This document shows, piece after piece, positions 10,064-39,300 of a stretch of 64,000 nt of DNA (position 1 is the stretch's first letter; every line of letters starts with the position of its first letter). Both the position numbers and the translations under genes were made by a program. Location: NCBI GenBank assembly GCA_018027755.1, contig GCA_018027755.1_4098.1, one strand, 5' to 3'. The notes under the pieces were generated by a model. That model saw only the letters and a program-made list of their open reading frames with translations. It was not told the origin of the DNA and ran no database searches. Source of the DNA: a phage.

Positions 10064-11389
10064 ATGACTACTCAAAACGATATCCTGAACGTTAAACTGA
10101 CTCCAAAGAAAGCTAAAGAAGCAATGGCACTAGCTGACATGATTCAAGATAGCCTGATGATTTGGGGTAGCCCAGGTATCGGTAAGTCTGCAATCGCTCG
10201 TCAATACGCTGATGAAAATTACCCACTGCGTAAAGATAACGTAGCTAAAATCGAGTTCATGAAACAACAAATCGAAGCTGACCCTGAAAATGCTGATCAG
10301 CTACGCCGTGAACTGGCTGCATTTGAAGCAAAACTAATCGACCAAGATACTAACTTTATCGATTTCCGTTTGTCTCAAATCGAACCAAGTGACCTTCGCG
10401 GTATTCCAGTACCAGAGAAGCTTTTCCGTAAAACTGACGGTTCTCTTCTGAAAGAATCTGAGCTTGCCGAAGCAAAAGATTATGTAGCTGAAACTGCGGT
10501 AGTATGGGCTGCACCTAAAGTTCTGAAATTGTCCGAAGATTGGAAAGGTGTTATTCTGTTTGACGAAATTAACTCTGCAATGCCTATTGTTCAGGCAGCG
10601 TCTTATCAGCTAATCCTCGACCGTTGTGTTGGTGAGATGAAGCTACCTAAGACTGCACTGATTCTTGCAGCAGGTAACCGTGAAACTGATGGCGGTGTAA
10701 CTTTCTCTCTTGCTACACCACTGCGTGACCGTATGACTCACATTGAGATGATTCCTTATCATCAAGATTGGATTAACGATTATGCGATTGCAAAACGTTT
10801 GAACCCAGCAACTGTTGCGTTCATCAACAACACTGGTTCTAAGTACTTTAACACACTTAGTCCACAAGATCCTTCTCACAGTGGTGGTACTTCTCCACGT
10901 TCATGGGAAGCAGTAGCACGCTACGAAGATCTCAAGAAAACTAAGACAATTGATAAAGAAGTGTTCCGTGCAATGATTGCTGGGCGTGTTGGTGAAGGTG
11001 TTGCAACTGAATACATTGAGTACGTTGAGAACGTTGCTAAACTACCAGATACTATGTCTATTCTGTCTGGTGAAATCAAAGAAATCGACGCAACGCTGGA
11101 TATTTCTGCGAACTACTTTATCACTCTGAACTTGGTTTATAAAATTATCGACCTGTTCAATGAGAAGCAAGAACAACGTCTACCAGTGGAAGAATGGGGT
11201 AAACTGTGTAACAACTTCATCACCTTCCTAGACCATAACTTCTCTGCAACTCAAGCAGAACTGGCAGTACTGGCAATTCGTACCATCACGCTTCATAAGG
11301 TTGCGATTTCCATTAAAGATGTACCAGCGTTTAAAGATTTCATCGCTAAGTACTCTGAACTTGTACGTAAAGCACGCTCTCTTGGCTAA
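10064..11389 (+). CDS. MoxR/CobS-like AAA+ ATPase
   Basis: Walker A GSPGIGKS, Walker B ILFDEIN, sensor AAGNRE, Arg finger region RDR; RBS AAGGA upstream. Confidence 0.8.
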   Translation: MTTQNDILNVKLTPKKAKEAMALADMIQDSLMIWGSPGIGKSAIARQYADENYPLRKDNVAKIEFMKQQIEADPENADQLRRELAAFEAKLIDQDTNFIDFRLSQIEPSDLRGIPVPEKLFRKTDGSLLKESELAEAKDYVAETAVVWAAPKVLKLSEDWKGVILFDEINSAMPIVQAASYQLILDRCVGEMKLPKTALILAAGNRETDGGVTFSLATPLRDRMTHIEMIPYHQDWINDYAIAKRLNPATVAFINNTGSKYFNTLSPQDPSHSGGTSPRSWEAVARYEDLKKTKTIDKEVFRAMIAGRVGEGVATEYIEYVENVAKLPDTMSILSGEIKEIDATLDISANYFITLNLVYKIIDLFNEKQEQRLPVEEWGKLCNNFITFLDHNFSATQAELAVLAIRTITLHKVAISIKDVPAFKDFIAKYSELVRKARSLG

Positions 11390-11463: not shown

Positions 11464-12888
11464 ATGTCAGATAACAAATCTACTTCCAGATTCAATGAAG
11501 TATCTCCGGCACTCCAGAAAGAATGTCAAGATCGTCTGGTTCTGGCTCGTACATCTTTGATGTTAACTGCACCATTCTTTGGTGTACTCGCTTCACGTTT
11601 ACGTCCAGTTCCTAATAATACATGGTGTCGTACTCTAGCAGTTGATGGTAAACATCTATTCTACAACGTAGAATTTGTAATGGGTATTCAAGACCCATCT
11701 AAAAAGAAAGAATATGAAGAAGCTATTCGTGAAAAGCATCCTGAAGTTACAGACGAACAATTAAAAGAAATGACTGAAGGTTTGACTGATGAAAACCTTA
11801 TTGCTGTAATTTGTCATGAAATTCTACACTGTGCTTACGATCACTTCCTTCGTCGTGGTATGCGTGATCCACAACGTTATAACCGTGCAGCGGATTATGC
11901 CATTAACCAAATCATCGTTCGTGAGAAAATTGGAAAAATCCAAAGTTCATGGTTGTATGATAAAAAATATGAAGGTATGACCGCAGAAGAGATTTACATT
12001 CTTCTTGAAGAAGAAGAACAAAAAGAAGATGGTGAAGGTGAAGGTCAACCACAAAGTGGCGGCGGTGAAGGTGAAGGTAAAAATCGCGGTACTTTTGGTG
12101 ATATTAAAGATGGTAAGGGTAAACCAAAAGGTACTACCATTGACCAGCATGACGTTCCACAAGAAGGTCAAGAAGGTGGTTCAAGTGAACAGCAAAAACG
12201 TGATTATATGGATGATTTCAAAACAGCAATGATGAATGCTGCACGTGCAGGTGGTACACCAGCAGAAATCGCTCGTATGATTAACAACTTTAAAGAACCA
12301 AAGATTGACTGGCGTTCAAAACTTCAACGTACACTTCGTAGTTGGTTGAAGTCTGATGCAACGTATCAAAGTCCTTCTCGTCGTTCATGGGGTGCTGGTT
12401 TTGGTTCTAATGGTTCATTCTATGGTAATCCAATTTACCCAGGGATGAAACCAGATGATGATATTGATATTGCGATTGCACTAGATGCTTCTGGGTCTAT
12501 TTCTGAAGATATGCTTCGTGATTTCATTAGTGAAGTTCTTGGCATCACTAAACAATTCAAACAGTTTAAGATTCGTATCATGACTTTTGATACTGAAGTT
12601 TATACTGTAAAGGATTACAAAACTGGCGAAGAACGTAAGATTCTGGAATATCCAGTAAAAGGTGGTGGTGGTACTGACTTTGAAGCAGTATGGGTTCATA
12701 TGAAGAACGACAACTACAAGCCTAAACAGCTTGTAATGTTTACTGATGGTGAACCGTGGCAGTCATGGGGTGATCCAAACTACTGTAAAACACTGTTCGT
12801 GATTCACAGTAACCCAAATAAAGTTGCACCATTTGGTGAGACTGTACACTACGAATATGAAGCTGATAAAAAGCGTCAACGTAGTTAA
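11464..12888 (+). CDS. VWA-domain protein with N-terminal HExxH zincin-like motif (CobT-like / DUF2201-like partner of the ATPase)
   Basis: HEILH motif; MIDAS DASGS and downstream FTDGEPW; Gly/Glu-rich linker EGEGQPQSGGGEGEGK; RBS GAGGA. Confidence 0.7.
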   Translation: MSDNKSTSRFNEVSPALQKECQDRLVLARTSLMLTAPFFGVLASRLRPVPNNTWCRTLAVDGKHLFYNVEFVMGIQDPSKKKEYEEAIREKHPEVTDEQLKEMTEGLTDENLIAVICHEILHCAYDHFLRRGMRDPQRYNRAADYAINQIIVREKIGKIQSSWLYDKKYEGMTAEEIYILLEEEEQKEDGEGEGQPQSGGGEGEGKNRGTFGDIKDGKGKPKGTTIDQHDVPQEGQEGGSSEQQKRDYMDDFKTAMMNAARAGGTPAEIARMINNFKEPKIDWRSKLQRTLRSWLKSDATYQSPSRRSWGAGFGSNGSFYGNPIYPGMKPDDDIDIAIALDASGSISEDMLRDFISEVLGITKQFKQFKIRIMTFDTEVYTVKDYKTGEERKILEYPVKGGGGTDFEAVWVHMKNDNYKPKQLVMFTDGEPWQSWGDPNYCKTLFVIHSNPNKVAPFGETVHYEYEADKKRQRS

Positions 12889-12898
12889 GTACTAAATA

Positions 12899-12930
12899 AA
12901 GAGAACGGAATTTTCCGTTCTCTTCTTTTA
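12899..12930 (+). terminator. intrinsic terminator after VWA gene
   Basis: GAGAACGG-AATTTT-CCGTTCTC followed by TTCTTTTA. Confidence 0.6.
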
Positions 12931-12934
12931 TAAG

Positions 12935-12963
12935 TGGGACAACTTATAAAAATATGATATAAT
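12935..12963 (+). promoter_or_regulatory. putative extended -10 promoter
   Basis: TGATATAAT (TGnTATAAT) upstream of ORF 12998-13243; -35 weak. Confidence 0.35.
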
Positions 12964-12997
12964 AGTTAATGTACCAATATACATGGAGAGTATTAAA

Positions 12998-13243
12998 ATG
13001 GAACAAGAAAATAATCAAATTCAACTAACCCTTCTAGACCTAATCAATGCTGCAAAAATCATGGAAGCTGCTGTTGCACGAAACACCTTTAAAGTTGAAG
13101 AACTTGTTGAGGTTGCTCCAGTTGTATCTAAATTTGTTTCTTTTGCAAATGTAGCTCTTGAAGATATTAAAGCACAAGAAGATGCAGCTAAAGAAGAAGC
13201 TGAATCACAAGATAGTGAAACTCAAGAAGATAAAGGAGAATAA
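12998..13243 (+). CDS. small acidic protein
   Basis: ATG at 12998 has GGAG RBS (track start 12983 is inside the RBS region); acidic C-terminus. Confidence 0.35.
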   Translation: MEQENNQIQLTLLDLINAAKIMEAAVARNTFKVEELVEVAPVVSKFVSFANVALEDIKAQEDAAKEEAESQDSETQEDKGE

Positions 13244-13245
13244 TT

Positions 13246-13902
13246 ATGGCAGCTATTCGTCATGTTGGTGTAATGCGTAATACAGGTTCTCGTGTTTTTG
13301 TTGTTTGGCGTTCACTACCAGATGATCCTGAACACTGCCTTATCGTTTATCGTGATTCACTACCAGAAGCATATGTTCACGCAGTAACTGATATTGTTAT
13401 GGGTCATGGTCAATCTAATATTGATTTGTGGGAAGTAATGCATAAAATTGGTTATCTCGATGGACGCAAAATGCTAGATGTTCTACACAACATGCAGCAT
13501 CTACGTCGCGTTCGTACTTGTGACATTGATATGCACACTGGTGGTAATAATAAAATTTCTCTTGATGTTCTAAACAAAGCATTAGATGAAAATCAAGCGA
13601 AAGTACAAGAAGATGGTAAAGTAAAAGACTTTAACCCATTCAATCCACAAGAAGCAGACACTAAAGTAGAAGAAGCTACTATTGTAGAAAAACTTCTCTC
13701 TGATGCACAAAAATATGAACAACTGGCTAAAGAACATTATGAACGTGCATACAATTTAGAGCCAAGCTTGCGTCCGCAAACACAAGTTGTTGAACAACCG
13801 AAAGATAGTAAAACAATTTATCTAGAAATTCCAGAAGGTATTTCACAGACTAAAGCTATTGAGAAAGTAAAACAACTATTTGCAGAACGTAAAGCAAAAT
13901 AA
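13246..13902 (+). CDS. hypothetical protein
   Basis: AGGAG RBS; no fold recognised. Confidence 0.4.
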   Translation: MAAIRHVGVMRNTGSRVFVVWRSLPDDPEHCLIVYRDSLPEAYVHAVTDIVMGHGQSNIDLWEVMHKIGYLDGRKMLDVLHNMQHLRRVRTCDIDMHTGGNNKISLDVLNKALDENQAKVQEDGKVKDFNPFNPQEADTKVEEATIVEKLLSDAQKYEQLAKEHYERAYNLEPSLRPQTQVVEQPKDSKTIYLEIPEGISQTKAIEKVKQLFAERKAK

Positions 13903-13905
13903 AAT

Positions 13906-14499
13906 ATGAAAAAGAATGAATTAGATGAAGCAATTAAAGGTTTATCTAATGTATGTTTTAGTGGCGGGGCAGCAGGTGCTGACCGCCTTTTTTCTATCTA
14001 TGCAAAAAATAATGGATTTGAAGTTATTAATTTTTCATTCAAAGGTCATGAGCATAGTGTAGATGAAAGTACTATATTAGAAATACCATCCAATATTCTA
14101 TCTGATATTTCTATATTAAATCAACTAAACATTGCATGTTACTCGTTGCAGCGAAAAGTACCAAAGCCTGGTTCTTATGTTTACAACTTACTTGCAAGGA
14201 ATAGTTATCAGATACTTAATACAGAAAGAATATATTGTATTGCAAATATCACATCACCAACTAAGGTAAGTGGTGGTACTGCATGGGCAGTACAGATGTA
14301 TATGGATTCAGTTGAAAATCCTGAAATTTATTGTTATGATATGAATTCACGTTCAGTATTTTATTTCGATACAGTACTGAAAGAGTTCACACAAACATTC
14401 GTCGTTCCAGCACCACATGGTAACTGGACTGGTATTGGTTCACGCAATGCCACCGAAAAACATATGGAACATTTTATTACATTTTTCAAGGAAGAATAA
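13906..14499 (+). CDS. hypothetical Rossmann-like protein, possibly SLOG/DprA-like
   Basis: N-terminal motif FSGGAAGADRLFS resembles the glycine-rich motif of SLOG-superfamily proteins; stop overlaps the thymidylate synthase start. Confidence 0.3.
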   Translation: MKKNELDEAIKGLSNVCFSGGAAGADRLFSIYAKNNGFEVINFSFKGHEHSVDESTILEIPSNILSDISILNQLNIACYSLQRKVPKPGSYVYNLLARNSYQILNTERIYCIANITSPTKVSGGTAWAVQMYMDSVENPEIYCYDMNSRSVFYFDTVLKEFTQTFVVPAPHGNWTGIGSRNATEKHMEHFITFFKEE

Positions 14500-15428
14500 T
14501 GAAACAACTACAAGAACTATATCAAAAAATTCTAGATGAAGGCGTAGAAAGCGTTGACCGTACTGGTGTTGGAACAATCAAACTTATCGGTCAACAAATG
14601 CGTTTTGACCTTAAAGATGGTTTCCCAGCAGTGACGACAAAACGTCTAGCTTGGAAAGCAATGACTTCAGAATTACTATGGTTTATTGAAGGTTCCCATG
14701 ATGAGCGTCGCCTTTGTGAAATTTTGCATGGAACTCGTGATACAGAAAAGAAAACTATTTGGACAGATAATTACCTAAATCAAGGCGTTGCTCTTGGTTA
14801 TACTGATGGTGAGTTAGGTCCAGTGTATGGTAAGCAATGGCGTGAATGGGAAGATTATAAATTTAGTTCCAGTACTGAAGAAATTCAAGAATTAAAAGAT
14901 AAAGGATACAAAGTTATCGATTATACTGGATCGCATGGTGTTGTTATGAAACGTACAACTGACCAATTACAGGAACTAATCAAAGGTATAAAGTCCGATC
15001 CATATGGTCGTCGCCATATTCTAAGTGCATGGAACGTTGGTGAGCTTGATGATATGACGTTACCACCTTGTCATAGCTTTGTACAATTTTGTGTAGTACA
15101 AGGGAAACTAAGCTGCATTCTACATCAAAGATCCGCTGATCTATTTTTGGGAGTTCCATTTAATATCAGTAGTTATTCACTACTAACTCATATGATTGCA
15201 CAAATTACTGGTTTAGATGTTGGTGAATTTATTTGGAATGGTGGTGATTGTCACATTTATAAAAACCACGTTGAACAAGTAAAAGAACAACTACAGCGAA
15301 AACCTCGTGAATTACCTGAATTGTGGCTTGATCCTACAATTACTAATATTGAAGATTTCACTATGGATTCTTTTAAATTAGTGAATTACAACCCAATGCC
15401 AACAATTAAAGCACCTATGGCTGTATAA
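14499..15428 (+). CDS. td: thymidylate synthase (uninterrupted, no intron)
   Basis: Active-site LPPCHSFVQFCV, QRSADLFLGVPFNISSYSLLTHMIAQ, GGDCHIYKNH (Asn retained, dUMP-type), C-terminal IKAPMAV. Confidence 0.9.
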   Translation: MKQLQELYQKILDEGVESVDRTGVGTIKLIGQQMRFDLKDGFPAVTTKRLAWKAMTSELLWFIEGSHDERRLCEILHGTRDTEKKTIWTDNYLNQGVALGYTDGELGPVYGKQWREWEDYKFSSSTEEIQELKDKGYKVIDYTGSHGVVMKRTTDQLQELIKGIKSDPYGRRHILSAWNVGELDDMTLPPCHSFVQFCVVQGKLSCILHQRSADLFLGVPFNISSYSLLTHMIAQITGLDVGEFIWNGGDCHIYKNHVEQVKEQLQRKPRELPELWLDPTITNIEDFTMDSFKLVNYNPMPTIKAPMAV

Positions 15429-15431
15429 ACG

Positions 15432-15462
15432 AAAAGGGAGAACATCAGTTCTCCCTTTTTTA
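15432..15462 (+). terminator. intrinsic terminator at convergent junction
   Basis: GGGAGAAC-ATCA-GTTCTCCC followed by TTTTTTAT. Confidence 0.75.
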
Positions 15463-17427
15463 TTATCTAATTGTTACCAATGTTCTTCCGTCGAAACGTA
15501 CATCAGGAGTTGAAGGTATACTAAACACTACGTTAGTGCCGTTAAACGTAACGCTATCGACCTCAACACGAGTATAGACACCAGGACTAACCTGTTCCTG
15601 TATCTCTGCTGTGACGATGTTTGAGGCTGTTACAGTAAGGGTGTAGTAGTTACCACTTAATACCCAAGATGAAATTGTAAAAGCATCGGTTCTCACTGAA
15701 CCTGAACCAATTGGAACCCATTGACCTTGAACTTTTTGCATTGAAGTACGCTCGGTATTGGAGTATGCAATCATACCATCAACGCCAACAGAGTTATCAA
15801 TAGTAGCTAGTACTGGTAATTGGATACCATATCTATTAAAACGTGTTCTTATAGTTCCATTATCATAGATACTTACATCAGCATAATTACCCATTGATAG
15901 TTTTAAATCAGAACTAACTAATTGGATTGTACTTTGATTAGTAGTACTTTCTAATGTAATTATACCATTAGCTAATAGATTTATATTTTTAAATTTATTA
16001 GTTGTTCCATTGAAATTAGTGTTTGCTGTAAACGTACTAACTCCATTAACTGTAATTGTATCAGATGCAGCATCGCCTAATGTAGTATTACCTTGAATGT
16101 TCAAATTACCACTAGCAGTGATATTACTAGCTGATGTATCACCAGTCAATGTACTTGTACCATCAACCACAATATTACCATGAAACGCACTTTCACCATT
16201 TTTAAATTCAACTTGTACTTTATTCATTGAACTAAATGAAATAATATTACTACTAGCACTTAGTCCAACATTAGTATTGGTTGCATTATCAAATCTTAGT
16301 ACTGGGGTTGATGCTGGGGTTGAAGTTGTTTGGTATAATGTTAATGTTGAATTATTAATTCTAATACGTTCAGTTCCAGCAGTACTGAAACCAATTGCAT
16401 CATCTGCTGGATGAAACATACCAGTATTAGCGTCTGACCATTTTGCAGGATCATTACCTGGGTTATTGGTTGGATCAAATGGATTGTTATTAAATGTCAA
16501 TGCTGGTGCTGCTGCACTACCATAGACCACACCAAAACGCCCTGAGCCGCTTGTTCCATCATTATACATGGAATCACCAGTTCTACGTAAACACTCAATC
16601 ACAACGTTATCTATGGATGTTTGAACGGTCCCTGCGTTTGTCCTAAATTGACGATGATTTGCAATCATTACAGTATTGTCATATAATACTGAAGCAGCGG
16701 AAATGCTTGTTCTTGACTGGCGTAGACGTATGTTTTTATCTTCAGTTATAATAATCCAATCACCATCTGATAGTGCGGTTTGGTTCATTGGAACACCTGA
16801 AGCAAATGGTTTGGTTAAGTCAGCATCTGTTGCTAAATTTTTAAGACCATCATGACCAGTACTCGTAATAGATGCAGGAATAATTCTAGCGAAAGCGTAT
16901 GTTACTAGTTTAGCACCAGATATATTTGGATTGGAGTCAACATAATATAAAATTTCAATCCAATTACCTTGACCAGTTGGGTTCGTAGGTGTAAATGTAA
17001 CCGGACTTGTTTGTGGGTTATTTGCTTCAAAGTGTGCTTGTGCTGCATCCATAATACCACGAACAACATAATAATCACCATTTAGTGATGCTGCTGGTGC
17101 TGGTAGTGGTGTTTGTGCTAAAGGTGGATCAATATCATCTGGGATAGGATTGTATGTACCAACAAACTGTAAACCACTAGTTACTGAATCTGGTAATTGG
17201 GAAGTAAGAAGTTTACCATTTGCATCTAAGTTTGCAAAGCGGCGATATGCCATAGTACCATCTTCAAAATCCAGAACACCTTCAAATGATTTCCATTCCT
17301 TATTGTATCTAATCATCCCTGATCTTATTACATCAGCGGTTTCTTTTGATGGTGCTTTCGGTAACTCTAAAAAAGATTTACTATCAATAATTACACCACC
17401 ATCACCTCTAATTCGATTTATACTCAT
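15463..17427 (-). CDS. tail fiber-like structural protein
   Basis: 654 aa, G/S/T/N-rich beta-rich composition; located in fiber gene cluster; near-consensus late box TATAAATC about 25 nt upstream. Confidence 0.45.
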   Translation of the reverse strand: MSINRIRGDGGVIIDSKSFLELPKAPSKETADVIRSGMIRYNKEWKSFEGVLDFEDGTMAYRRFANLDANGKLLTSQLPDSVTSGLQFVGTYNPIPDDIDPPLAQTPLPAPAASLNGDYYVVRGIMDAAQAHFEANNPQTSPVTFTPTNPTGQGNWIEILYYVDSNPNISGAKLVTYAFARIIPASITSTGHDGLKNLATDADLTKPFASGVPMNQTALSDGDWIIITEDKNIRLRQSRTSISAASVLYDNTVMIANHRQFRTNAGTVQTSIDNVVIECLRRTGDSMYNDGTSGSGRFGVVYGSAAAPALTFNNNPFDPTNNPGNDPAKWSDANTGMFHPADDAIGFSTAGTERIRINNSTLTLYQTTSTPASTPVLRFDNATNTNVGLSASSNIISFSSMNKVQVEFKNGESAFHGNIVVDGTSTLTGDTSASNITASGNLNIQGNTTLGDAASDTITVNGVSTFTANTNFNGTTNKFKNINLLANGIITLESTTNQSTIQLVSSDLKLSMGNYADVSIYDNGTIRTRFNRYGIQLPVLATIDNSVGVDGMIAYSNTERTSMQKVQGQWVPIGSGSVRTDAFTISSWVLSGNYYTLTVTASNIVTAEIQEQVSPGVYTRVEVDSVTFNGTNVVFSIPSTPDVRFDGRTLVTIR

Positions 17428-18355: not shown

Positions 18356-21300
18356 TTAAGCAGTACGTTGTGCAATAAACATATCTGTTACTGGACTCAC
18401 CCCGTCATAAATGACTTGGTAGATAGTTACAGAGTTTGCAGTTTTGTTTAGAGTTCCATCAACAACCGCATAAGTACCATCAGTAGTAAAGTTTCTATTA
18501 CCTGTTGCATCTTGTTTCACATAAATGTATACTGAAGATGCTTTACCACCACCGATTAGACCAGTGATTGGTGCTAGAGTGGTATCTTGATCTAGAGTGA
18601 TAAAGTATACGTTGCTAGTACCGTCTGGGGTCCAAGTACCAGTTGGTGCGATAACAGAAGAAGTTACTTGATTAGGAATAACATCATATTTTTTAGTAGT
18701 TACTGTTGTTGTAGTTAGGTCAGCATTAGTAGTTGTCAATTGACCAGTTACAGTTACATCTTTATCAAATACTGCATTTTCTTTGAAAGAAGATGTTGCA
18801 TTGACAGTTAATGTATCAGCAGCAGCGTCACCTAAAACAACACTACCATTTGCAGTCATTAAACCAGTAACAGTTAAAGTACCACCGATTGTTGCTGCTC
18901 CAGTAACAGATGCACTAGCAAGTGTTGCTGCACCAGAAGTAGTAATGGTAGTTACTGAAGTTGCTGCTAGGGTTGCAGTACCTGTTGCAGAAATATCACC
19001 ACCAACAGTTAGGTTACCAGAAGTAATTCCAACGGTTCCAGTAATGTTAGCACCACTTGACATCGTTACTGCACCACCAAATGAACCAGTAGTAGTTACT
19101 TCAAGGGTGTTCCCTTTTAGTAGACCAGTTGCAGTAATACTTGTACCTGCGGTAATACTAGTACCAGCAGCAACACTGTTGGTTGCAGTTAATGATTTAA
19201 CAGCCACGTCAGAGTTTGCTTGGTTTAGTGTTGCGTTTAGTAGACCAGTTACTGTAAAGTTACCGTTGTTAACTACGTTACCATTGATTGTTAAGTTGTT
19301 GTTTTGTGAACCAACATCACCAATAGTTGCTGATTTGGAAATCAACTCTGCACCAGAAGTAATGTTACCCGCTGCACTAATAGTGTCAGCCGCAACAACT
19401 GCATAAGGTTCAATTGTTTGACCACTAACGTCAATATCAGCGTTGATACCACCATCTACACGCAAGGAGCCTGCAATGTAAGTATTAGGGAAAATCTGAA
19501 CTGTCTCTGGTTGATCACCAATTTTAGTACCGATAATAACATCAGAACCAGTTTTAACTGCACCAGAGGTTGTTAGTGAACCTAAAGTTGTAGCACCAGT
19601 TACACCTAATGTTCCACCAATTGTTGCGTTATTGGTAACTGCTAATGCAGCACCTTCACCATTAAGAGCGATTGATGGAGCAGATACTGCACCAGTTACG
19701 CCTAATGTGCCACCAATTGTTGCGTTGCCATCTGAATGTAGAGTTGTAGCTACAGAAAGACTGTTAGCAACTACATCAGTACTAGCTAAATCCAATGCAC
19801 CTGGGGTTAATGTACCAGTAATGTTAACATTATTACCAAAGGTTGCTGCACCAGTCACATCTAGTGTAGTACTAAATGTACCAGAGGTTGCAGAGATTGC
19901 ACCTGAATCTAGTGATCCAACAGTTGCTTTCCCAGTTACACCTAAAGTTCCACCAACAGTTCCATTTGTGGTTACATCCAATGTACCAGTACTTAGTTCT
20001 TGTGCGGTTACCTTACCGGATGCAGTAACAGTTGAAGTGGAAACGCCACCAGTTAGAGTACTAGCACCAGTAACACTTAATGTGGTTGCAGCAGTTACGC
20101 TATTTACGCTAAGATCAGCACCGGATAAGTCCAAACCACCTTCAGGAACAAATACACCCTTAACAGTTAGTTTTTGTACTGTACTATCACCTGTTACATC
20201 CAAGGTAGAAGCAGTTAAACCACCATTCATACTTGCTGCACCAGTAACACCTAGTGTAGTGGTTACAGTAGCACTATTAAGTGTTGAACTACCAGAAATA
20301 TTAGCACTAGGAGCAGTAATAGTTCCAGAATCAACTTGTATACCACCAGCAACAACCTGAATTCCACCAGCATTAACTGTTAGTTTACCAGCAGTATTCA
20401 ATGTATTTGAAACTGTTGTTGCACCAGTTAAAGTTGTAGTACCAGTTACACCTAAGTTACCAGAAATAGATGGACTACCTGTAATATTACCAGTAGTTAG
20501 TATCAAATCAGTACCTACGGTAGTGGAGCCAGTACTTTCTAGTGTTACACCGACGATGTTTGCAGAACTTAGGTTAATAGTACCATCAACAGTTAAGTTA
20601 CCTTGAACGGTTGCATCACCTAGAGAAGTTAATGTCTTCACAGACACATCAGTTGTGCTAAGATCAATAACACCCGCAGTTAGTGTTCCAGATACTGCTA
20701 AATTACCAGTAATCGCGGTATTTTTAGTAATGGATACATTTTCTGCCGCTGAAGTAATAGAACCAACAGTAAGTACACCACCAACAGTTGCGTTATTAGT
20801 TACATTTAGAGCAGTTCCAACACCAGATAGTGTTGCTGACCCACCAGTAATTGCACCTGAGATTGAAGCTGTTGCTGCTGAAACATCACCAGAAACTACT
20901 GCATTTGTTGCATTTAGAGCAGACACTGTAACTTCAGTACTTTGAACTTTAGGTAGAACGTTGATACCTTCTGCACTACTAACTGTAATAATACCAGTAC
21001 TTGTTAGAGATTTAACAGATACATCAGCACCACTTAAATCAACTGTACCAGAAACAACAAGATCTCCACCAATATTTGCTCCAGCGGTAGTAGTAATGGA
21101 TTTTGCACTTACATCAGTTGTGCTCAAATCAATTGCACCTGGTGTTACTGTACCAGAAACTGTTAGGTCACCAGTAATAGATGTATTATTGGAAATAGAT
21201 ACACCATCAACGTTACTAATTGTTGGGGTTTCTACAGAAACTGCTTTAACTTTACCTGAAGAAGTTACGTCAGCTACGGTAGATGCACCAGTAACATTCA

Positions 21301-23881
21301 AATTAGTAATATTTGCAGTTGTTGAACCAAGGGTTGCAATAGTTGCATCAGTACTTTGAAGTTTAGGTAGAACACTACTAATTGTGGATTCATTACTAAC
21401 AATTGCACCAGTACTAGTTAAAGATTTGACAGTAACATCAGCCGTAGTAAGATCTACTGTACCATTAACAGTTAGGTTACCACCAATAGTTGCACCAGCA
21501 GTAGTAGTAATGGATTTAGCATTAACATCAGTTGTTGCTAGATCGATAGAGCCTGGAATAACTGCACCAGTAACAGTTAGGTCACCAGTTACATTTGTAT
21601 TATTGGAAATAGTGACACCACTTGCATTTGAAATGGTTGGGGTAACCAACGATGCAGTTGTAGTTTCACCAGTTACAGTTAAAGTTGACCCAACTAGAAC
21701 AGATGAGCTTGAGTAAATTGTACCCAAATTAGCAGATCCGGTAACAGTTATATCATCAGCATTAACAGTAGTTGCCGTTATGGTAGTACTATTAAGTACT
21801 GGAAGTACGTTAGCATTAACAAGATCATTACTTTTAACAATACCAGAAGTAGTTAATGATTTAACATTAAGGTCGGCTGCTGATAAATCAAAAGAGCCTT
21901 GAACTACTAAATCACCACCAATAGTTGCACCAGCAGTAGTAGTGATTGATTTAGCATTAATATCGGTAGTGCTCAAGTCTAGAGAACCAACAGTTAAGCT
22001 ACCAGTAATATCAACATTTTCTGTAAAGTTAGTATTACCACTAATAGTTGGTGCAGTCAGAGTTGTTGCACTAATATTAGTACCGTTAATTGTTTGCCCA
22101 CTTACAGTTCCACTCGCAGTGATAGTAGGGGCCGTTACTTCAGTAGATGCACTAATTGTTGGTGCAGATACAGAAGTTGTACCAGTAATAGAACCAGAAC
22201 TTACTGAACCAGCGGATAATGCACCAGAAAGAGTTGCAGTTGTACCAGCAATATCACCAGTAACAGTTAGTTTAGCACCCACGGTAGTGTTACCAGTACT
22301 TTCAAGTGTTGCACCTTTAATATTTGCTGCCGCGACAACAGAATTAGGTGTTAGATCCTGCCCACTAACATCAACAGTTAGTCCAGTTACTGTTCCAGTA
22401 AATTCAACATCATTAAGAATTGCTTTACCACCAACTTGTAGGAATGGTGTACCTGGAGCTTGTGTTTCGTTACCAGTAATAGTTAGGTAATCTAGTTTGT
22501 TTAGACCGTTACCAGTAATACCATAAGTGGAAAGAGAAGCGTTACCGAAAGTTGCTGTTTTAAGAACGTTCAATGTAGAAGGAGAAACGACTTCTGATTG
22601 AACTTCGTTAGGTAGAATAACTGTTGGGCGTTGACCTGGTGCAGTATATCCAAAACCTAGTTTCACTGCCGCATCTTGACTATTTTGGCCTAAGCTGATA
22701 GATTTAAAGGATGCAGTACTGTTATAACCAGTAATATTAGAACCAAGAGTAACACCACCAACTAATGAAGTTGCACCAGTAACGTTCAATGATACTGCAT
22801 TAATATCGTCTAGTTGGAATGATCCACCAAGAAGACCAGAAACATTAATGTTATTAAAATTAGCAGTTCCAGTACTTTCAATATTTGGAATAGTTGCAGT
22901 TCCGGTTACTTCAAAGTCAGCAACTTTGGTTTTGCCTTTTTGAACTTCTAATAGTGGTGTGTCTGGAGATTGTGTGTTGTTACCAGAAACTGTTAGATAA
23001 TCCAATTTGTTTAGACCATTACCAGTAATACCATAAGAAGATAATGACGCATTACCAAAAGAAGCAGAGGTCAATACTGTCAAGTTTGCAGGTGACATTA
23101 GCTCGGACTGAATTTCGTTTTGTAGAATAACAGTTGGGCGTTTACCAGGAGCAGTGTAAGGGAAGCTTAATCTGAAGGTTTGTGATTCAGAGTTAGAACC
23201 AATACGAATGTCTTTAAAAGTAGCAGTACTGTTAATACCAGTTACGTTAGCACCGAAAGTCACTGCACCTTGTTGGTTAGATGCACCAGAAACGTTCAAT
23301 GTTACTGCATTTAAGTCAGAAAGATTAAACTGACCACCTAATGTACCACTAATGGTTACATCTTTAAAAGTAGCAGTTCCAGTACTACTAATATCGGTTG
23401 TACTTACATTAGTAATTTCTGCGGAATTAGCAGTAATTTTATCAAATGCAGAAGTAGTACCAACATCAGCAGTAATATTACCTTTAAATGCTGTTGTTTC
23501 AGCAACTTCTAAGTTTTTAACTTTAGTTGCTTGTAGAGTGGTTGTACCAGCAGTTTGTGTGAAATCAGAACCAACTGATACAGTACCGTTAAAGGTAGCG
23601 TTTGAATTAATTGTTGCTGTATCAGACCCGACAACTGCACTACCGATTGTAGTATTACCCTCAACACCAAGACCACCAGAAAGTGTTGCTTTGCCACCAA
23701 CATCTAAAGTAGATGTAATGTTGGCAGTTGATGATTCAATGGCAGTAAAAGTTGCATTTGCAAAAGTTACAGTACCATTTACAGTTAGGTTATTATTGAA
23801 AACAGCATTTCCTTTGACTAAAAGATCCTTACCAACCGTACCAGCACCAGTAATATCTAAGTCAGTTTTTATTGAGTACAT
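18356..23881 (-). CDS. very large repetitive tail fiber protein (1841 aa)
   Basis: T/G/S/A/V-rich; about 130-aa units repeated at least 4 times (IDLxTTDVxAKSITTTAGAxIGGxLxVxGxxDLxxADVxVKSLTSTG); a second duplicated unit FGNASLSxYGITGNGLNKLDYLT. Confidence 0.7.
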   Translation of the reverse strand: MYSIKTDLDITGAGTVGKDLLVKGNAVFNNNLTVNGTVTFANATFTAIESSTANITSTLDVGGKATLSGGLGVEGNTTIGSAVVGSDTATINSNATFNGTVSVGSDFTQTAGTTTLQATKVKNLEVAETTAFKGNITADVGTTSAFDKITANSAEITNVSTTDISSTGTATFKDVTISGTLGGQFNLSDLNAVTLNVSGASNQQGAVTFGANVTGINSTATFKDIRIGSNSESQTFRLSFPYTAPGKRPTVILQNEIQSELMSPANLTVLTSASFGNASLSSYGITGNGLNKLDYLTVSGNNTQSPDTPLLEVQKGKTKVADFEVTGTATIPNIESTGTANFNNINVSGLLGGSFQLDDINAVSLNVTGATSLVGGVTLGSNITGYNSTASFKSISLGQNSQDAAVKLGFGYTAPGQRPTVILPNEVQSEVVSPSTLNVLKTATFGNASLSTYGITGNGLNKLDYLTITGNETQAPGTPFLQVGGKAILNDVEFTGTVTGLTVDVSGQDLTPNSVVAAANIKGATLESTGNTTVGAKLTVTGDIAGTTATLSGALSAGSVSSGSITGTTSVSAPTISASTEVTAPTITASGTVSGQTINGTNISATTLTAPTISGNTNFTENVDITGSLTVGSLDLSTTDINAKSITTTAGATIGGDLVVQGSFDLSAADLNVKSLTTSGIVKSNDLVNANVLPVLNSTTITATTVNADDITVTGSANLGTIYSSSSVLVGSTLTVTGETTTASLVTPTISNASGVTISNNTNVTGDLTVTGAVIPGSIDLATTDVNAKSITTTAGATIGGNLTVNGTVDLTTADVTVKSLTSTGAIVSNESTISSVLPKLQSTDATIATLGSTTANITNLNVTGASTVADVTSSGKVKAVSVETPTISNVDGVSISNNTSITGDLTVSGTVTPGAIDLSTTDVSAKSITTTAGANIGGDLVVSGTVDLSGADVSVKSLTSTGIITVSSAEGINVLPKVQSTEVTVSALNATNAVVSGDVSAATASISGAITGGSATLSGVGTALNVTNNATVGGVLTVGSITSAAENVSITKNTAITGNLAVSGTLTAGVIDLSTTDVSVKTLTSLGDATVQGNLTVDGTINLSSANIVGVTLESTGSTTVGTDLILTTGNITGSPSISGNLGVTGTTTLTGATTVSNTLNTAGKLTVNAGGIQVVAGGIQVDSGTITAPSANISGSSTLNSATVTTTLGVTGAASMNGGLTASTLDVTGDSTVQKLTVKGVFVPEGGLDLSGADLSVNSVTAATTLSVTGASTLTGGVSTSTVTASGKVTAQELSTGTLDVTTNGTVGGTLGVTGKATVGSLDSGAISATSGTFSTTLDVTGAATFGNNVNITGTLTPGALDLASTDVVANSLSVATTLHSDGNATIGGTLGVTGAVSAPSIALNGEGAALAVTNNATIGGTLGVTGATTLGSLTTSGAVKTGSDVIIGTKIGDQPETVQIFPNTYIAGSLRVDGGINADIDVSGQTIEPYAVVAADTISAAGNITSGAELISKSATIGDVGSQNNNLTINGNVVNNGNFTVTGLLNATLNQANSDVAVKSLTATNSVAAGTSITAGTSITATGLLKGNTLEVTTTGSFGGAVTMSSGANITGTVGITSGNLTVGGDISATGTATLAATSVTTITTSGAATLASASVTGAATIGGTLTVTGLMTANGSVVLGDAAADTLTVNATSSFKENAVFDKDVTVTGQLTTTNADLTTTTVTTKKYDVIPNQVTSSVIAPTGTWTPDGTSNVYFITLDQDTTLAPITGLIGGGKASSVYIYVKQDATGNRNFTTDGTYAVVDGTLNKTANSVTIYQVIYDGVSPVTDMFIAQRTA
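20640..22000 (-). repeat. in-frame tandem coding repeats (about 390-nt period) inside fiber gene
   Basis: Repeated peptide units above and near-identical antisense ORF translations in the track (20961-21359, 21384-21716). Confidence 0.55.
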
Positions 23882-36294: not shown

Positions 36295-36330
36295 AAAAGA
36301 AAAGGAGAGCAATATGCTCTCCTTTTTTAT
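36295..36330 (+). terminator. bidirectional intrinsic terminator
   Basis: AAGGAGAGC-AATAT-GCTCTCCTT flanked by A-run and T-run. Confidence 0.75.
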
Positions 36331-39300
36331 TACTTAACTAATAATATATTTTTAATATCATTACCACTAACTTGTAGACTATCAGTGTATACTGAAAGAT
36401 CTATAGTGTAACTATTTTGTGTGTAACGTTTTAACATATCATAATTACCTAAATTAATTCCATTGAAAGAATATGTAGTATTAAGTTTAAAATCATGTTC
36501 TGCACTATACATTACACCACGGAGTAAATTATTTGCATTTCTAACTTCAACTTTTTCATATCCAATCGATATAATATCATTCATGTTCGCGGCTGAACCG
36601 GATAAAACATTATTTCTAATACTATAAGGACTTATTGATTTAGGTTGAGAAACATAGGTTGTATTTTCTTCACTAATGGTTGTGATGTTAGTAACAGTAC
36701 CACCAACAACACCGATGTACATACCGTCAACCATTGGATATCCATAAACCCATATACCTTCATTATTTCTAAACGGTTGAATAACACTTGAGTCATATTC
36801 AATAACGTTGATTTCTAAACTATCAGTCATTTTAGTTCTTGCTAATTCACTAAGAACTCCCGCACCAGTAATTGGTAGGTTATAACCGTTGTCGATAGTA
36901 ATTCCATCAACATCAAATATTTCGTTAGAGATTATCCAAACGTCAACGTCATCTGGTGTTATTCCGTCATTGTACTTACCACCATTTAAAGTAGTATCGT
37001 AGAAAACATCATAATTAATTACATCAATTGTGTAATTTCTATTTTGTTCGTACAATTTGATACCATTCTTCACAAATTCTGGGTCAGCAAATGTTCTAAC
37101 ACGAACAATGTTCAATGCAAGAGGCTGTACTGGCTCATTTTGTTGTGCAAGAGTGATATTATCATAACGGAGAACTGTACCAGTACTCTCATCAATCAAT
37201 TCAATCGTTTCTTTACCTGTATTTCTTACAGTGAATAGGATCGGAGTTGTATTGTTTTTGATGTTAGATACACGCAAGATTGTTTCCCATGTGTGATTTT
37301 GATATCTCACAAAATCTTCACCATCAGGAGTGAAAATCATCACCTTATCACCATCAGATAGGTCATTGTCAACTATTTCTGCTTCAGTTAAGCTATTAAT
37401 AGATCTCACACGATAGAAATATTTTTCATCAAACTTCGATGTTGTTTTATTAATATCATTTTCAATCTTAGCATATGAAGGAATACTTACAATTGCTTCT
37501 GTATGTTTATATGGATTGATAATTGCCATACCTTCAGTTTGATATCTGCTGTTATCACGTAATTGTACAAGAGATACATTGTCAAACCCATATCCATCAA
37601 CTGTAAATCTAATTTGACCTACATCACGCCCAGAAGGGTTTATGTCAGATATATCCACAATATAAGGATCAACTTCATCATCTTTAACTTCCCATTTTAT
37701 TGAAGAAGTTTGAGATTCCAATGCTAGGTTATCAAATGCATTCATATCATTGAAGTACTTAGCTTCAGTAATACTATCAAGTATATATTGATAATCAGAA
37801 TACATTGGATTATTTTGATCTAGTGGTAAATCATCAAGATTTATTTCAGCTAGTTCAACCATTTCACCATTTGTGATAAAATAATCTTCCATGAAATCAT
37901 CAATACTTTGTTCATCAGGTATGCTTTGATATACACCGTTAACATTTAAGTAAACATATTTTCGTGGAATCATTGTAATTGCATAGATATCAATTGGGGT
38001 CTTACTAAGAATCTCTTCAGCTTTTTCGTACTTATCAGTAGCGTCTTTGTCGAATAACCCTCTCATACCTGCTAATACGTGAATAGCATCAGTATAGAAA
38101 CGGGTATCACCACCTACTTCATCATAACGATAAACATATACACCATACTCAACTTCAAGTTTAACTTTTACTTCATAGTCTGATGCGTCAGGATTTTTAT
38201 CTTTAATTAATGAAATGTATTTTTGATACAATTCACTGCTTATTTCAAAATATCCATAGTTATAATCATTACTAGAAGAAAAGCCTAATGGAAGTCTAGT
38301 ACTAGGATTGTCATTATAAGTAAGTCCACTAAATCCACATCCAACTTCATCGTGAATTTTCTCATCACTTATATCTTTATAAAGTTTCAAACGGTTTGCC
38401 AATGTGTTATACTGAACATATTGTCTAAGGTCAGTAAACATATCGTTATGCGTTGATTCTTTATAAACACGTTCCAATGTAGCAGTGAATTCATCAGTTG
38501 CTTCTAAATCTTCCGCATGGTCTTTATACCACTGGTTAACGCCATATGCTGTTCCTAGTGTTACATCCAATTCTGGATAGTAGATTTGCATTTGATAAGC
38601 AATAAGAAGATCGAAAGTTTCTTCACTATATTCTGGGAAAGAATATATATAACGTTGTAATTCATAGTTACTAACAGCATCCTTTTCATTGGATTGATAT
38701 TTGTTATTAACACTTACTAATTCATTTATGCTTGCCAAATCTTCATTTGGTTTACACTGAATATTATCATAATGCATAATAATATCAATTTCTTGGAATC
38801 TTCTATTTGGTGTAACGAAATCACTTGGTAGTGAACCTACCTGTTCCCATTTTTGGGTAATTTCATTAAATTGAGCGTACTCATAATCCCAAATATCTTT
38901 TTCAGTTTTGATCCAAGAACCATCAACGAAAATATATCCATTAGGATCTAAATCATTACATAGACCTTTTATTAAATCATCATCAGATGTCTTTTGCTCT
39001 ATTTGTGAACGAATTTTAGTTCTATAAGGTTTAACTTCTTCAAAATATTCAACAATTTGATTAATCAAATTATCGTTTGAATAGTTTTGAACTAATGATT
39101 GTTCCAAACCAACAATATAGATATATGATGTTTTAAATACCCAATCCACAACACTTTGTTCAACATGTACATATTTGACCATATCAAAAACAATTTCGCT
39201 TTGATGTAAATCGAAAGAATTTTTGAGTAAAGCTAGTGCTTTACGAACGTTGATTTCACGATTGCTTAGTGAACCATTATCATTATGAACACTATAATCT

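Follow-up and report, generated by a model that had tools for sequence, protein, structure and literature searches.

In the phage DNA analysed here, a stretch of 64,000 nucleotides that we call the window, an open reading frame for a 197-residue protein runs directly into one for a 309-residue thymidylate synthase (TS) homologue, and the question raised by this pair is whether it belongs to a route of thymine hypermodification, an alternative raised by the original prediction, or whether an ordinary synthase simply stands beside a nucleotide-binding protein of another kind. The window is about 99% identical to the Asteriusvirus jumbo coliphages 121Q, PBECO4, G17 and phAPEC6, where the counterparts of the two ORFs are gp567 and gp568, respectively. 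Both ORFs start with ATG and the first contains FSGGAAGADRLFS. Their junction reads GAAGAATAATGAAA, the stop codon TAA (14497-14499) and the start codon ATG (14499-14501) having one base in common, so that the TAATG overlap claimed at the outset agrees with both the ORF coordinates and the sequence. The two genes are the final cistrons of a tight four-gene unit (12983-15428), whose features are collected in Table 1. This transcription unit, flanked by an ATPase/VWA gene pair and by tail genes, is conserved in Rak2-like jumbo phages, and the present one is that of an Asteriusvirus of the 121Q/PBECO4 type.

Table 1. Coordinates of the features in and around the four-gene unit of the window.
Feature	Position	Strand	Remarks
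Hairpin terminator ending the ATPase-VWA genes upstream (N4 gp24/gp25-like)	12899..12924	+	11-pair stem, then T run; terminator annotated at the equivalent site in the G17 record
Promoter-like site before the unit, GGGACA-16-TGnTATAAT	12936..12963	+	scores 10/12; consensus match only, such sites being no commoner in the region than in shuffles
First cistron, 86 aa, 121Q gp565 homologue	12983..13243	+	acidic C-terminus; phrog_13789 match
Second cistron, 218 aa, gp566 homologue	13246..13902	+	SH3/KOW-like beta-barrel N-terminal, helices C-terminal
Third cistron, 197 aa, gp567 homologue	13906..14499	+	predicted stand-alone, circularly permuted YpsA-like SLOG domain
Shine-Dalgarno-like AAGGAAG for the TS gene, within the 3' end of the SLOG ORF	14488..14494	+	read from the sequence
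Fourth cistron, 309 aa, gp568 homologue	14499..15428	+	canonical intronless ThyA by family models and alignments
Hairpin with T run on the + strand	15431..15460	.	13-pair stem; terminator scan; terminator annotated here in G17

The hairpin at the end of the unit sits between the convergent TS gene and a structural-protein gene (15463-17427, minus strand), and Rfam gave there only sRNA-like matches, all below threshold. As for the first two cistrons, the gp565 homologue matches phrog_13789, a family of unknown function, at 2.4e-37 and gave no match in a Pfam search. The gp566 homologue was considered as a degenerate dNMP kinase because its size and position match those of the kinase (DNMK) of other lineages, but this candidate was rejected, the protein having no P-loop and the fold of an SH3/KOW-like barrel. 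It is not a nucleotide-modification enzyme.

To judge from its sequence, the 309-residue protein is almost certainly a canonical, intronless thymidylate synthase ThyA. It scores 340.4 bits against the Pfam model PF00303 (cut-off 24.3) and passes the two NCBIfam equivalog models NF002497 (342.9, cut-off 327) and TIGR03284 (326.8, cut-off 108.35); among PDB structures, entries of E. coli ThyA come closest (1e-80), and the unbroken ORF aligns end to end with ThyA, at 53% identity to the E. coli enzyme. ThyA is recognised (in E. coli numbering) by the catalytic Cys of its P-C-H motif, a quartet of phosphate-binding Arg residues, Glu58, Tyr94, Asp169, Asn177 and His207/Tyr209, and by a C-terminal tail which closes over the folate. 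The phage protein keeps all of these, as C191-H192, R21, R171/R172 and R211 (within Q210-R211-S212), E58, Y110 (E. coli Y94), D214, N222 (the dUMP-specifying Asn, equivalent to N177), H252 and Y254, and the C-terminal KAPMAV; the alignments thus bear out the full set of canonical motifs, dUMP-specifying Asn included, that had been announced from a first look at the DNA. Two in-frame insertions relative to the E. coli protein, of about 15 residues in the segment 66-103 and about 29 in the segment 119-151, account for its length of 309 amino acids against 264. The claim that the gene has no intron likewise stands: the ORF is continuous, and in an Rfam scan of positions 12500-15800 no group I intron or other family reached threshold; terminator look-alikes below threshold were all that it gave, and even with E values of up to 1 no match to a group I intron appeared. 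Such an enzyme would methylate dUMP to dTMP with methylene-tetrahydrofolate and, together with the phage dCMP deaminase, DHFR, thymidine kinase, dNMP kinase and ribonucleotide reductases, would provide thymidylate for an AT-rich genome of 350 kb. RaK2 and CBB encode the standard route to dTMP, with genes for dCMP deaminase, DHFR, tk and dNMP kinase, and also RNR (PMC3622015, PMC5259590); the DHFR and dCMP deaminase genes of such related genomes support the predicted conversion of dUMP to dTMP indirectly.

According to the hypermodification proposal, the TS homologue would be an enzyme of the dUMP hydroxymethylase type and the SLOG protein a part of the pathway. TS-fold hydroxymethylases do occur in phages, and annotation can blur the difference, as PHROG 160 merges them with TS and OZ209023.1 gives T4 gp42 the label 'thymidylate synthase'. 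Hydroxymethylases are marked by the loss of Tyr94 and of the C-terminal tail, and those acting on dCMP by an Asp which replaces Asn177. The phage TS retains the Asn, the Tyr and the tail, scores above the ThyA equivalog cut-offs, and is nearer to E. coli ThyA than to the three pyrimidine hydroxymethylases compared: against the 53% given above, identity is 24% to T4 gp42, 23% to gp117 of the ViI-like phage dinky and 29% to an annotated 'pyrimidine hmase' (23-29% overall). It also keeps H192 and the Trp of the IW motif, whereas the ViI-like homologue has lost the equivalents of Y94 and H192, the IW-motif Trp and the tail, and T4 gp42 lacks H192 and the tail. Related genomes encode DHFR, as expected of a true TS. 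No gene for a 5-hmdU DNA kinase, a transferase or a glucosyltransferase was found in the operon or its flanks, neither gp566 nor gp565 is an enzyme of the proposed pathway, and the adjacency of SLOG and ThyA genes is limited to one phage clade. RaK2 DNA is reported to resist many restriction enzymes, which could speak for modified bases, but the RaK2 authors put the pattern down to methylation (PMC3622015), and RaK2 and CBB have no homologues of HMase and glucosyltransferase (PMC3622015, PMC5259590). We conclude that the SLOG-TS pair very probably forms no hypermodification route, a hydroxymethylase-type TS being extremely improbable; the synthase groups with bona fide ThyA. Since it is ordinary, nothing gives cause to suppose that 121Q-like phages carry hypermodified thymine.

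The other member of the pair had been called SLOG-like, and here comparison of folds and motifs sustains the original prediction. On its AF2 model (pLDDT 96.3), the 197-residue protein is very likely a stand-alone Rossmannoid domain of the SLOG superfamily, from the YpsA-like branch, with the three-layer alpha/beta fold of LOG, DprA, YpsA and MCP. Its motifs are SGGAAGAD (19-26), R98-N99 followed by Q102, GGTAWAVQ (123-130), D134 and a C-terminal GIGSR (176-180), which supply the glycine-rich loops typical of nucleotide-phosphate binding (G-x-G-S/T-R, GGxxGxD and a GGT before a helix). In 34 diverse members S19, G20, G21, A22, G24, D26, G123, G124, T125, G176, G178 and R180 are invariant, as are R98, Q102 and the GGT..A pattern across SLOG family members; together, these invariant loops and polar residues would make up a pocket that takes a phosphorylated nucleotide as its ligand. 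The domain is circularly permuted as in the cpYpsA structure 3imk, so that canonical strand 1 and its G-x-G-S/T-R loop lie at the C-terminus. When sequences were re-permuted in silico, the DprA Pfam model spanned the artificial junction in five of six, weakly (E 0.007-0.08).

The family of the protein comprises at least 434 protein clusters and has no Pfam model. The YAcAr/DUF2493 model PF10686 covers 39 residues of the 197-residue protein at 20.2 bits (cut-off 28.2) and gives sub-threshold matches in 13 of the 34 family members. Searches of PDB sequences with the protein and with the family profile gave chance-level matches only; PF12694, which we take to be the family of 3imk-type 'putative molybdenum carrier proteins', was not matched at E up to 0.1, and 3imk itself was not recovered by phmmer or profile search at E up to 10. 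In a database of 5.8 billion proteins, the best 120 matches of the profile were all family members without Pfam domains, and among them we found neither an informative fusion nor a link to any curated family. In the 276-307-aa variants P0072, P0084 and P0096 the C-terminus is extended by about 100 residues, and these extensions gave no Pfam match either.

What ties the SLOG protein to its neighbours can hardly be read from the overlap with thyA alone. By a rough ORF call, 6 of the 36 same-strand neighbour pairs in the window overlap and 13 of the 36 lie within 10 nt; such overlaps being common, this one is by itself a weak pointer to a functional link, and we rejected it as proof of coupling. 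More is learned from the neighbourhoods of the family as a whole, if one keeps in mind that loci within each lineage are syntenic and that neighbour counts are therefore not independent events: ThyA is encoded within 10 kb of the SLOG gene in all 18 Rak2-like loci and in none of 60 other loci, while a dNMP kinase gene (confirmed by Pfam, 52.5 bits, cut-off 27.1) lies directly upstream of it in 34 of these 60 and overlaps its start in 31 of the 34. The SLOG-ThyA link is lineage-specific, and true overlap occurs in the 121Q type only, an extra ORF of about 110 aa standing between the two genes in most Rak2-like genera. The SLOG proteins beside the dNMP kinase have a median identity of only 43%. 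In a third lineage a dCMP deaminase gene is found upstream of the SLOG gene, four genes off in locus L099 and eight in L001. Thus in each of three lineages the SLOG gene has as a neighbour the gene of a different enzyme of a single pathway, which leads from dCMP by way of dUMP and dTMP to dTDP.

We tentatively favour an explanation in which an ordinary ThyA stands beside a SLOG protein that would act alongside the pyrimidine dNMP enzymes. As a whole we would place it a little below even, a level set by its weakest, inferred step; the tie of the SLOG protein to dNMP metabolism, taken separately, is somewhat more doubtful. The protein would bind or process a ligand of the nucleoside or deoxynucleoside monophosphate type; it would be either an N-glycosidase or another enzyme that sanitises the pool, or else a partner that senses the ligand. 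The one-base overlap with thyA would be a local, lineage-specific arrangement ensuring co-expression, and not a signature of base hypermodification. A more far-reaching version seems unlikely, though worth stating: the proteins would be a phage-specific clade of circularly permuted SLOG domains and a real functional partner of these enzymes (with translational coupling to the dNMP kinase of many huge phages and to ThyA in 121Q-like ones, and with dCMP deaminase near in the third lineage), that is, a new dNMP-directed enzyme or regulator such as a deoxynucleotide N-glycosidase editing the dNMP pool. Delivery with the virion is conceivable because the domain is a module of N4-like and crAss-like virion proteins.

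The main rival to this dNMP reading is that the SLOG protein acts against host defence, binding as a sponge or sensor, or cleaving, ADP-ribose-derived or other nucleotide immune signals such as the gcADPR of Thoeris, the thyA neighbourhood being incidental synteny; we consider it improbable, though by no means negligible. The YpsA-like branch is the nearest to our protein, and for viral domains of this branch the Aravind group predicts the degradation or sensing of ADP-ribose-derived immune signals, the SLOG domain of ThsA being a receptor for cADPR isomers (PMC9503650, PMC7824862). With its motifs intact, the domain is also embedded in two virion-delivered giant proteins, the virion RNA polymerase of Pylas, an N4-like phage, and a 4328-aa protein of the crAss-like phage cr113_1. 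Such a setting is more in keeping with an anti-host role of an injected protein early in infection than with housekeeping metabolism. The SLOG gene itself lies in a region of virion modules, and phAPEC6 virions were found to contain the neighbouring products ThyA, gp566 and the ATPase; the SLOG protein could not be properly scored in that mass spectrometry because its gene was mis-annotated as two fragments. The papers on RaK2 and CBB do not, in their main texts, list these gene products among the virion proteins. NAD-salvage genes (NMNAT-Nudix, NAMPT and NAD synthetase) occur near the SLOG gene in L001, L099 and Atu_ph07, which would favour the anti-defence reading and may count against the dNMP role. 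Against an anti-defence function, the loci that we inspected showed the domain neither fused to Macro, NADAR or DUF4326 nor encoded next to them, the gene is stably syntenic and core-like, outside the variable accessory islands, and its strongest conserved partner, a dNMP kinase with overlapping frames, finds no explanation in an ADP-ribose-signal function.

The name given by RefSeq and PHROG leads to a third reading, that of an ssDNA-binding recombination mediator which would load the phage recombinase in place of a missing UvsY. The protein does match phrog_768, named 'DprA-like', at 1.3e-26; in the Caulobacter phage Cr30 the SLOG gene comes after the gp47/gp46 recombination nuclease genes; Iyer et al. 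proposed SLOG/DprA proteins as additional ssDNA binders of jumbo phages, and RaK2 has no UvsY homologue (PMC3622015). We nevertheless hold this role to be very unlikely: the Pfam DprA model PF02481 reaches at most 16 bits on the SLOG proteins (cut-off 29.6), the 197-residue protein is a bare domain with neither SAM nor winged-helix extensions, a pI of 5.75 (family median 6.5) makes it slightly acidic, and its invariant residues are those of a phosphate pocket for a small ligand. The label 'DprA-like DNA recombination-mediator protein' is unsupported as a family assignment.

With regard to hypermodification, the outcome is therefore mostly negative, the TS being ordinary, and the novelty of the SLOG-ThyA finding is modest. 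What remains of value is the SLOG protein, member of a family widespread among jumbo phages (about one in three of them is reported to have the domain; PMC9503650) which forms a deeply conserved overlapping pair with a dNMP kinase and recurs as a module of giant proteins packaged in virions. Two hypotheses arise for it, a function in the dNMP pool or the degradation of immune signals. Searched for experimentally studied examples of phage SLOG, cpYpsA or YAcAr proteins, or of a SLOG-type anti-Thoeris factor, the literature yielded predictions alone.

Comparison with known systems places the two proteins very differently. The synthase has the fold of E. coli ThyA and of other bacterial and phage TS (PF00303; PDB 2tsc, 1aob, 1tis for T4 td and 1lca for L. 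casei TS) and shares with known ThyA the catalytic and ligand residues, the C-terminal tail and the dUMP-specifying Asn, with a Tyr in place of W83 of the E. coli enzyme. Its larger insertion is collinear with the one that L. casei-type TS carries in the small domain, as 1lca aligns over residues 6-309 in one stretch. Unlike the intron-bearing T4 td, which matches residues 1-218 only in one piece, the gp568-type gene has no intron, and it lies in a tail-gene region and not beside frd and nrd. The SLOG protein differs from the nucleotide 5'-monophosphate N-glycosidases of the LOG/PpnN type (PDB 5wq3, 9us2, 1wek) in its permuted topology and in the absence of the signature PGGxGTxxE with its catalytic Glu; the corresponding region reads SGGTAWAVQ, without Glu, and places Q130 or A128 at the position of the LOG Glu, in an uncertain register, and any hydrolase activity is therefore putative. 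In LOG enzymes the Glu works with a partner Arg, and in the phage family R98 is invariant. With DprA/Smf and ShosA (PDB 3uqz, 4ljk, 8zva) it has in common the Rossmannoid SLOG core and an SGxAxGxD-type motif, a resemblance which explains the database label 'DprA-like', but the structural score is lower, accessory domains are absent and the protein is not basic. It is set apart from YAcAr/DUF2493 (PF10686) and YpsA (PDB 2nx2) by its score below the Pfam cut-off, its permuted strand order and its C-terminal GIGSR. Finally, cpYpsA from Syntrophus aciditrophicus (3imk) has the same permuted strand order with no match at the sequence level, and to this common architecture the phage protein adds an insert of helices at about 57-102 and, at 150-164, a beta-hairpin.

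The SLOG-like protein and the thymidylate synthase (TS) are encoded by the final two genes of a compact four-gene unit, whose counterparts in phage 121Q are gp565-gp568. According to the ORF listing of the window, the 197-aa ORF that includes FSGGAAGADRLFS ends in the ATG of the 309-aa TS ORF, as the original prediction had read from the sequence: the SLOG stop and the TS start have one base in common within GAAGAATAATGAAA, and a Shine-Dalgarno-like AAGGAAG lies ahead of the TS start. This overlap is nothing special for the window, in which a rough ORF call gives overlaps for 6 of 36 same-strand neighbour pairs and distances of at most 10 nt for 13 of the 36. The unit is housed in a tail-gene region: the genes for tail sheath and tail tube lie on its 5' side together with an ATPase-VWA pair of the N4 gp24/gp25-like kind, and convergent tail-fibre genes lie on its 3' side. 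Identity of the region to Asteriusvirus jumbo coliphages (121Q, PBECO4, G17, phAPEC6, Sharanji and others) is 99.0-99.5%. In 121Q, gp567 has the RefSeq name 'DprA-like DNA recombination-mediator protein' and gp568 the name 'thymidylate synthase'. The ATPase-VWA pair is kept 5' of the operon in every genus examined of the Rak2-like jumbo-phage clade; its second gene, 121Q gp564, is an 'HNH endonuclease' in RefSeq, and its Pfam match is DUF2201_N (putative metallopeptidase) plus VWA-like, not HNH. The window also has two very large ORFs; going by its annotation in 121Q, the 1841-aa one encodes a repetitive tail-fibre protein.

Coordinates of the features discussed, in the window and in comparison loci
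Feature	Sequence	Position	Strand	Length	Remark
AAA ATPase gene	window	10064-11389			N4 gp24/gp25-like pair
gp564 counterpart	window	11464-12888			N4 gp24/gp25-like pair
Hairpin terminator	window	12899-12924			5' of four-gene unit
Promoter-like site	window	12936-12963			5' of four-gene unit
Cistron 1, gp565	window	12983-13243	+	86 aa	
Cistron 2, gp566	window	13246-13902	+	218 aa	
Cistron 3, gp567, SLOG	window	13906-14499	+	197 aa	
AAGGAAG	window	14488-14494			
SLOG stop TAA	window	14497-14499			
TS start ATG	window	14499-14501			
Cistron 4, gp568, TS	window	14499-15428	+	309 aa	
TS residues ~66-103	window	14694-14807			first insertion
TS residues ~119-151	window	14853-14951			second insertion
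Terminator	window	15431-15460			3' of four-gene unit
Very large ORF	window	18356-23881	-	1841 aa	
Very large ORF	window	36330-46331	-	3333 aa	
Split SLOG gene, phAPEC6	L007, MK817115	1226-1800			
SLOG module, cr113_1	L014	3501-3977			
SLOG module, Pylas	L015	3501-3992			
T4 gp42	L096, OZ209023.1	5466-6206			
dNMP kinase-SLOG pair	L100	4360-5915			among L016-L095-type loci (IMG/VR)
dNMP kinase-SLOG pair	L002	5387-6579			among L016-L095-type loci (IMG/VR)
dNMP kinase-SLOG pair	L013	2845-4397			among L016-L095-type loci (IMG/VR)

The TS is firmly established as a canonical, intronless ThyA. It scores 340 bits against Pfam PF00303, passes the NCBIfam equivalogs NF002497 (342.9, cut-off 327) and TIGR03284 (326.8, cut-off 108), and its closest solved structures are E. 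coli ThyA entries (1e-80). All canonical motifs and the dUMP-specifying Asn are indeed present, since every catalytic and ligand residue is kept (R21, E58, Y94, R126/R127, C146-H147, Q165-R166-S167, D169, N177 and H207/Y209 in E. coli numbering), together with the C-terminal tail KAPMAV; the ORF is continuous, and a group I intron search of the TS region detected none. Relative to E. coli ThyA, W83 is replaced by Tyr and two in-frame insertions are found, of about 15 residues within 66-103 and about 29 within 119-151. L. casei TS aligns in a single collinear stretch, and the small-domain insertion of L. casei-type TS is collinear with the second of these. The uniform length of Rak2-like TS proteins (309-312 aa) is consistent with both insertions being kept across the clade.

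The possibility had further been raised that the TS is of the dUMP-hydroxymethylase type and that the pair belongs to a route of thymine hypermodification. This alternative is unsupported because of the ThyA-like residues and identities and the gene content of RaK2 and CBB, and we consider it very unlikely indeed. The protein shares 53% identity with E. coli ThyA, versus 24% with T4 gp42, 23% with the TS homologue of dinky, a ViI-like phage, and 29% with an annotated 'pyrimidine hmase'. In these three TS-fold hydroxymethylases, losses variously affect Y94, the Asn, the histidine of the PCH motif, the tryptophan of the IW motif and the C-terminal tail. The RaK2 and CBB papers list thymidine kinase, dNMP kinase, dCMP deaminase, DHFR and RNR, and do not report hydroxymethylase or glucosyltransferase homologues (PMC3622015, PMC5259590); RaK2 DNA is said to behave as methylated, the underlying data not being displayed in the paper (PMC3622015). 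Neither gp565, in which no family was recognised, nor gp566, a protein of Rak2-like phages only with an SH3/KOW-like barrel and helices, hints at nucleotide-modification chemistry. The top PHROG match of the TS, PHROG 160, fails to separate synthases from hydroxymethylases, because T4 gp42, a dCMP hydroxymethylase, carries the same phrog 160 label 'thymidylate synthase'.

The description of the 197-aa protein as SLOG-like proved right, as follows from its invariant glycine motifs, an AlphaFold2 model and a re-permutation of its sequence. A single-sequence search gave 106 homologues and a profile search at least 434, nearly all of 177-211 aa and a few with a C-terminal extension of ~100 aa; among the matches listed, none has a Pfam assignment. 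In a diverse alignment of 34 members, S19, G20, G21, A22, G24, D26, R98, Q102, G123, G124, T125 and A128 are invariant, as are G176, I177, G178 and R180 near the C-terminus, and the model built from it has a pLDDT of 96.3 and a pTM of 0.91. When residues 166-197 were transferred in silico to the N-terminus in six sequences, the DprA Pfam model spanned the artificial junction in five of them, weakly (E 0.007-0.08) but consistently. We conclude firmly that the protein is a permuted SLOG domain; it belongs to the YpsA-like SLOG branch, as a circularly permuted member specific to phages. It matches phrog_768 'DprA-like' at 1e-26 and YAcAr/DUF2493 below threshold (20 bits vs 28), and neither NCBIfam nor a PDB sequence search gave a match. 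Membership in the curated sequence families DprA, YAcAr and cpYpsA was rejected in each case.

The coupling of SLOG to ThyA is, just as firmly, local to one lineage. In annotated phages, Asteriusvirus, Alcyoneusvirus (gap of 2 nt in RaK2), Mimasvirus and Eneladusvirus all keep the gene order ATPase, VWA, two to three small genes, SLOG, ThyA, with an additional ~110-aa ORF between the SLOG gene and thyA in Mimasvirus CBB and Eneladusvirus BF. The family profile retrieved 80 IMG/VR loci, 75 of them with a callable SLOG ORF, and with three earlier loci 78 were analysed (18 Rak2-like, 60 other). All 18 Rak2-like loci have a ThyA homologue no more than 10 kb from SLOG, versus 0/60 others, and the spacing in the former is -1 nt in the 121Q type only, +2 nt in RaK2 and 235-330 nt in the other 16. 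By these counts and spacings, the pairing is inherited synteny in one clade, true overlap being limited to one genus. A 217-aa P-loop protein, a dNMP kinase by Pfam PF21448 (52.5 bits vs 27.1), is present in 39 of the 60 other loci and directly 5' of SLOG in 34; the two frames overlap in 31 of these 34, mostly via ATGA, in loci whose SLOG proteins have a median identity of 43% (minimum 34%). PTH2 and tail sheath are further syntenic neighbours, the kinase-SLOG pair usually lying just 5' of the sheath gene. Some SLOG copies in these loci bear a C-terminal extension of ~100 aa without Pfam assignment. In a third lineage, dCMP deaminase lies 5' of SLOG, four genes off in locus L099 and eight in L001, and NMNAT-Nudix and NAMPT lie 3'; NAD synthetase is two genes 5' of SLOG in Atu_ph07, and in Cr30 the SLOG gene comes after gp47/gp46.

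SLOG modules also occur in giant proteins: a whole domain at ~980-1144 of the virion RNA polymerase (gp65, 3.8 kaa) of the Klebsiella N4-like phage Pylas, with all invariant motifs and low-complexity linkers on both sides, and a domain inserted with all motifs and low-complexity linkers in the 4328-aa gp38 of the crAss-like phage cr113_1. BFVD fold matches extend the modules to cr130_1, cr272_1 and one helicase fusion. Stop codons occur in frame in the cr113_1 copy, which fits stop-codon recoding. The tail-region TS gene and the TS in phAPEC6 virions are reminiscent of an old claim that places T4 td and frd in the baseplate; the virion TS could equally be carry-over contamination. Mass spectrometry of CsCl-purified phAPEC6 virions gave 3 peptides of TS (10.7% coverage), 1 of the gp566 homologue and 6 of the N4 gp24-like ATPase (PMC7247149, Table 1). 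By tblastn, the phAPEC6 genome has an intact 197-aa SLOG ORF, 100% identical to the window protein, which would escape the virion proteomics database because the record splits the gene into two small spurious ORFs, gp261c and gp260c.

For the SLOG protein we tentatively favour a nucleotide-binding or nucleotide-processing role tied to pyrimidine dNMP metabolism. This role is suggested because dCMP deaminase, ThyA and dNMP kinase (dCMP to dUMP to dTMP to dTDP) adjoin the family in three lineages, because one of the three pairs has deeply conserved overlapping frames and because, to our knowledge, all characterised catalytic SLOG enzymes use nucleoside monophosphates. The main rival comes from the literature, where viral SLOG domains of the YpsA-like type have been predicted to bind immune signals derived from ADP-ribose or to degrade them (PMC9503650, PMC7824862). 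It fits both the modules in virion proteins and the NAD-salvage neighbours; we regard it as somewhat unlikely here. The DprA-like recombination-mediator label is improbable, as the slightly acidic pI of 5.75 (family median 6.5) argues against ssDNA binding and the protein falls outside the curated DprA family.

GenBank already contained both genes from dozens of phages, and the SLOG domains of jumbo phages have been surveyed. What is new is that dNMP kinase, not ThyA, is the most conserved partner of this SLOG family, that the family recurs within virion giant proteins, and that it forms a permuted clade without Pfam assignment. Canonical SLOG proteins carry the G-x-G-S/T-R loop at the N-terminus, after strand 1, whereas in the 197-aa protein this loop is C-terminal and a GGAxGxD motif stands at the start.
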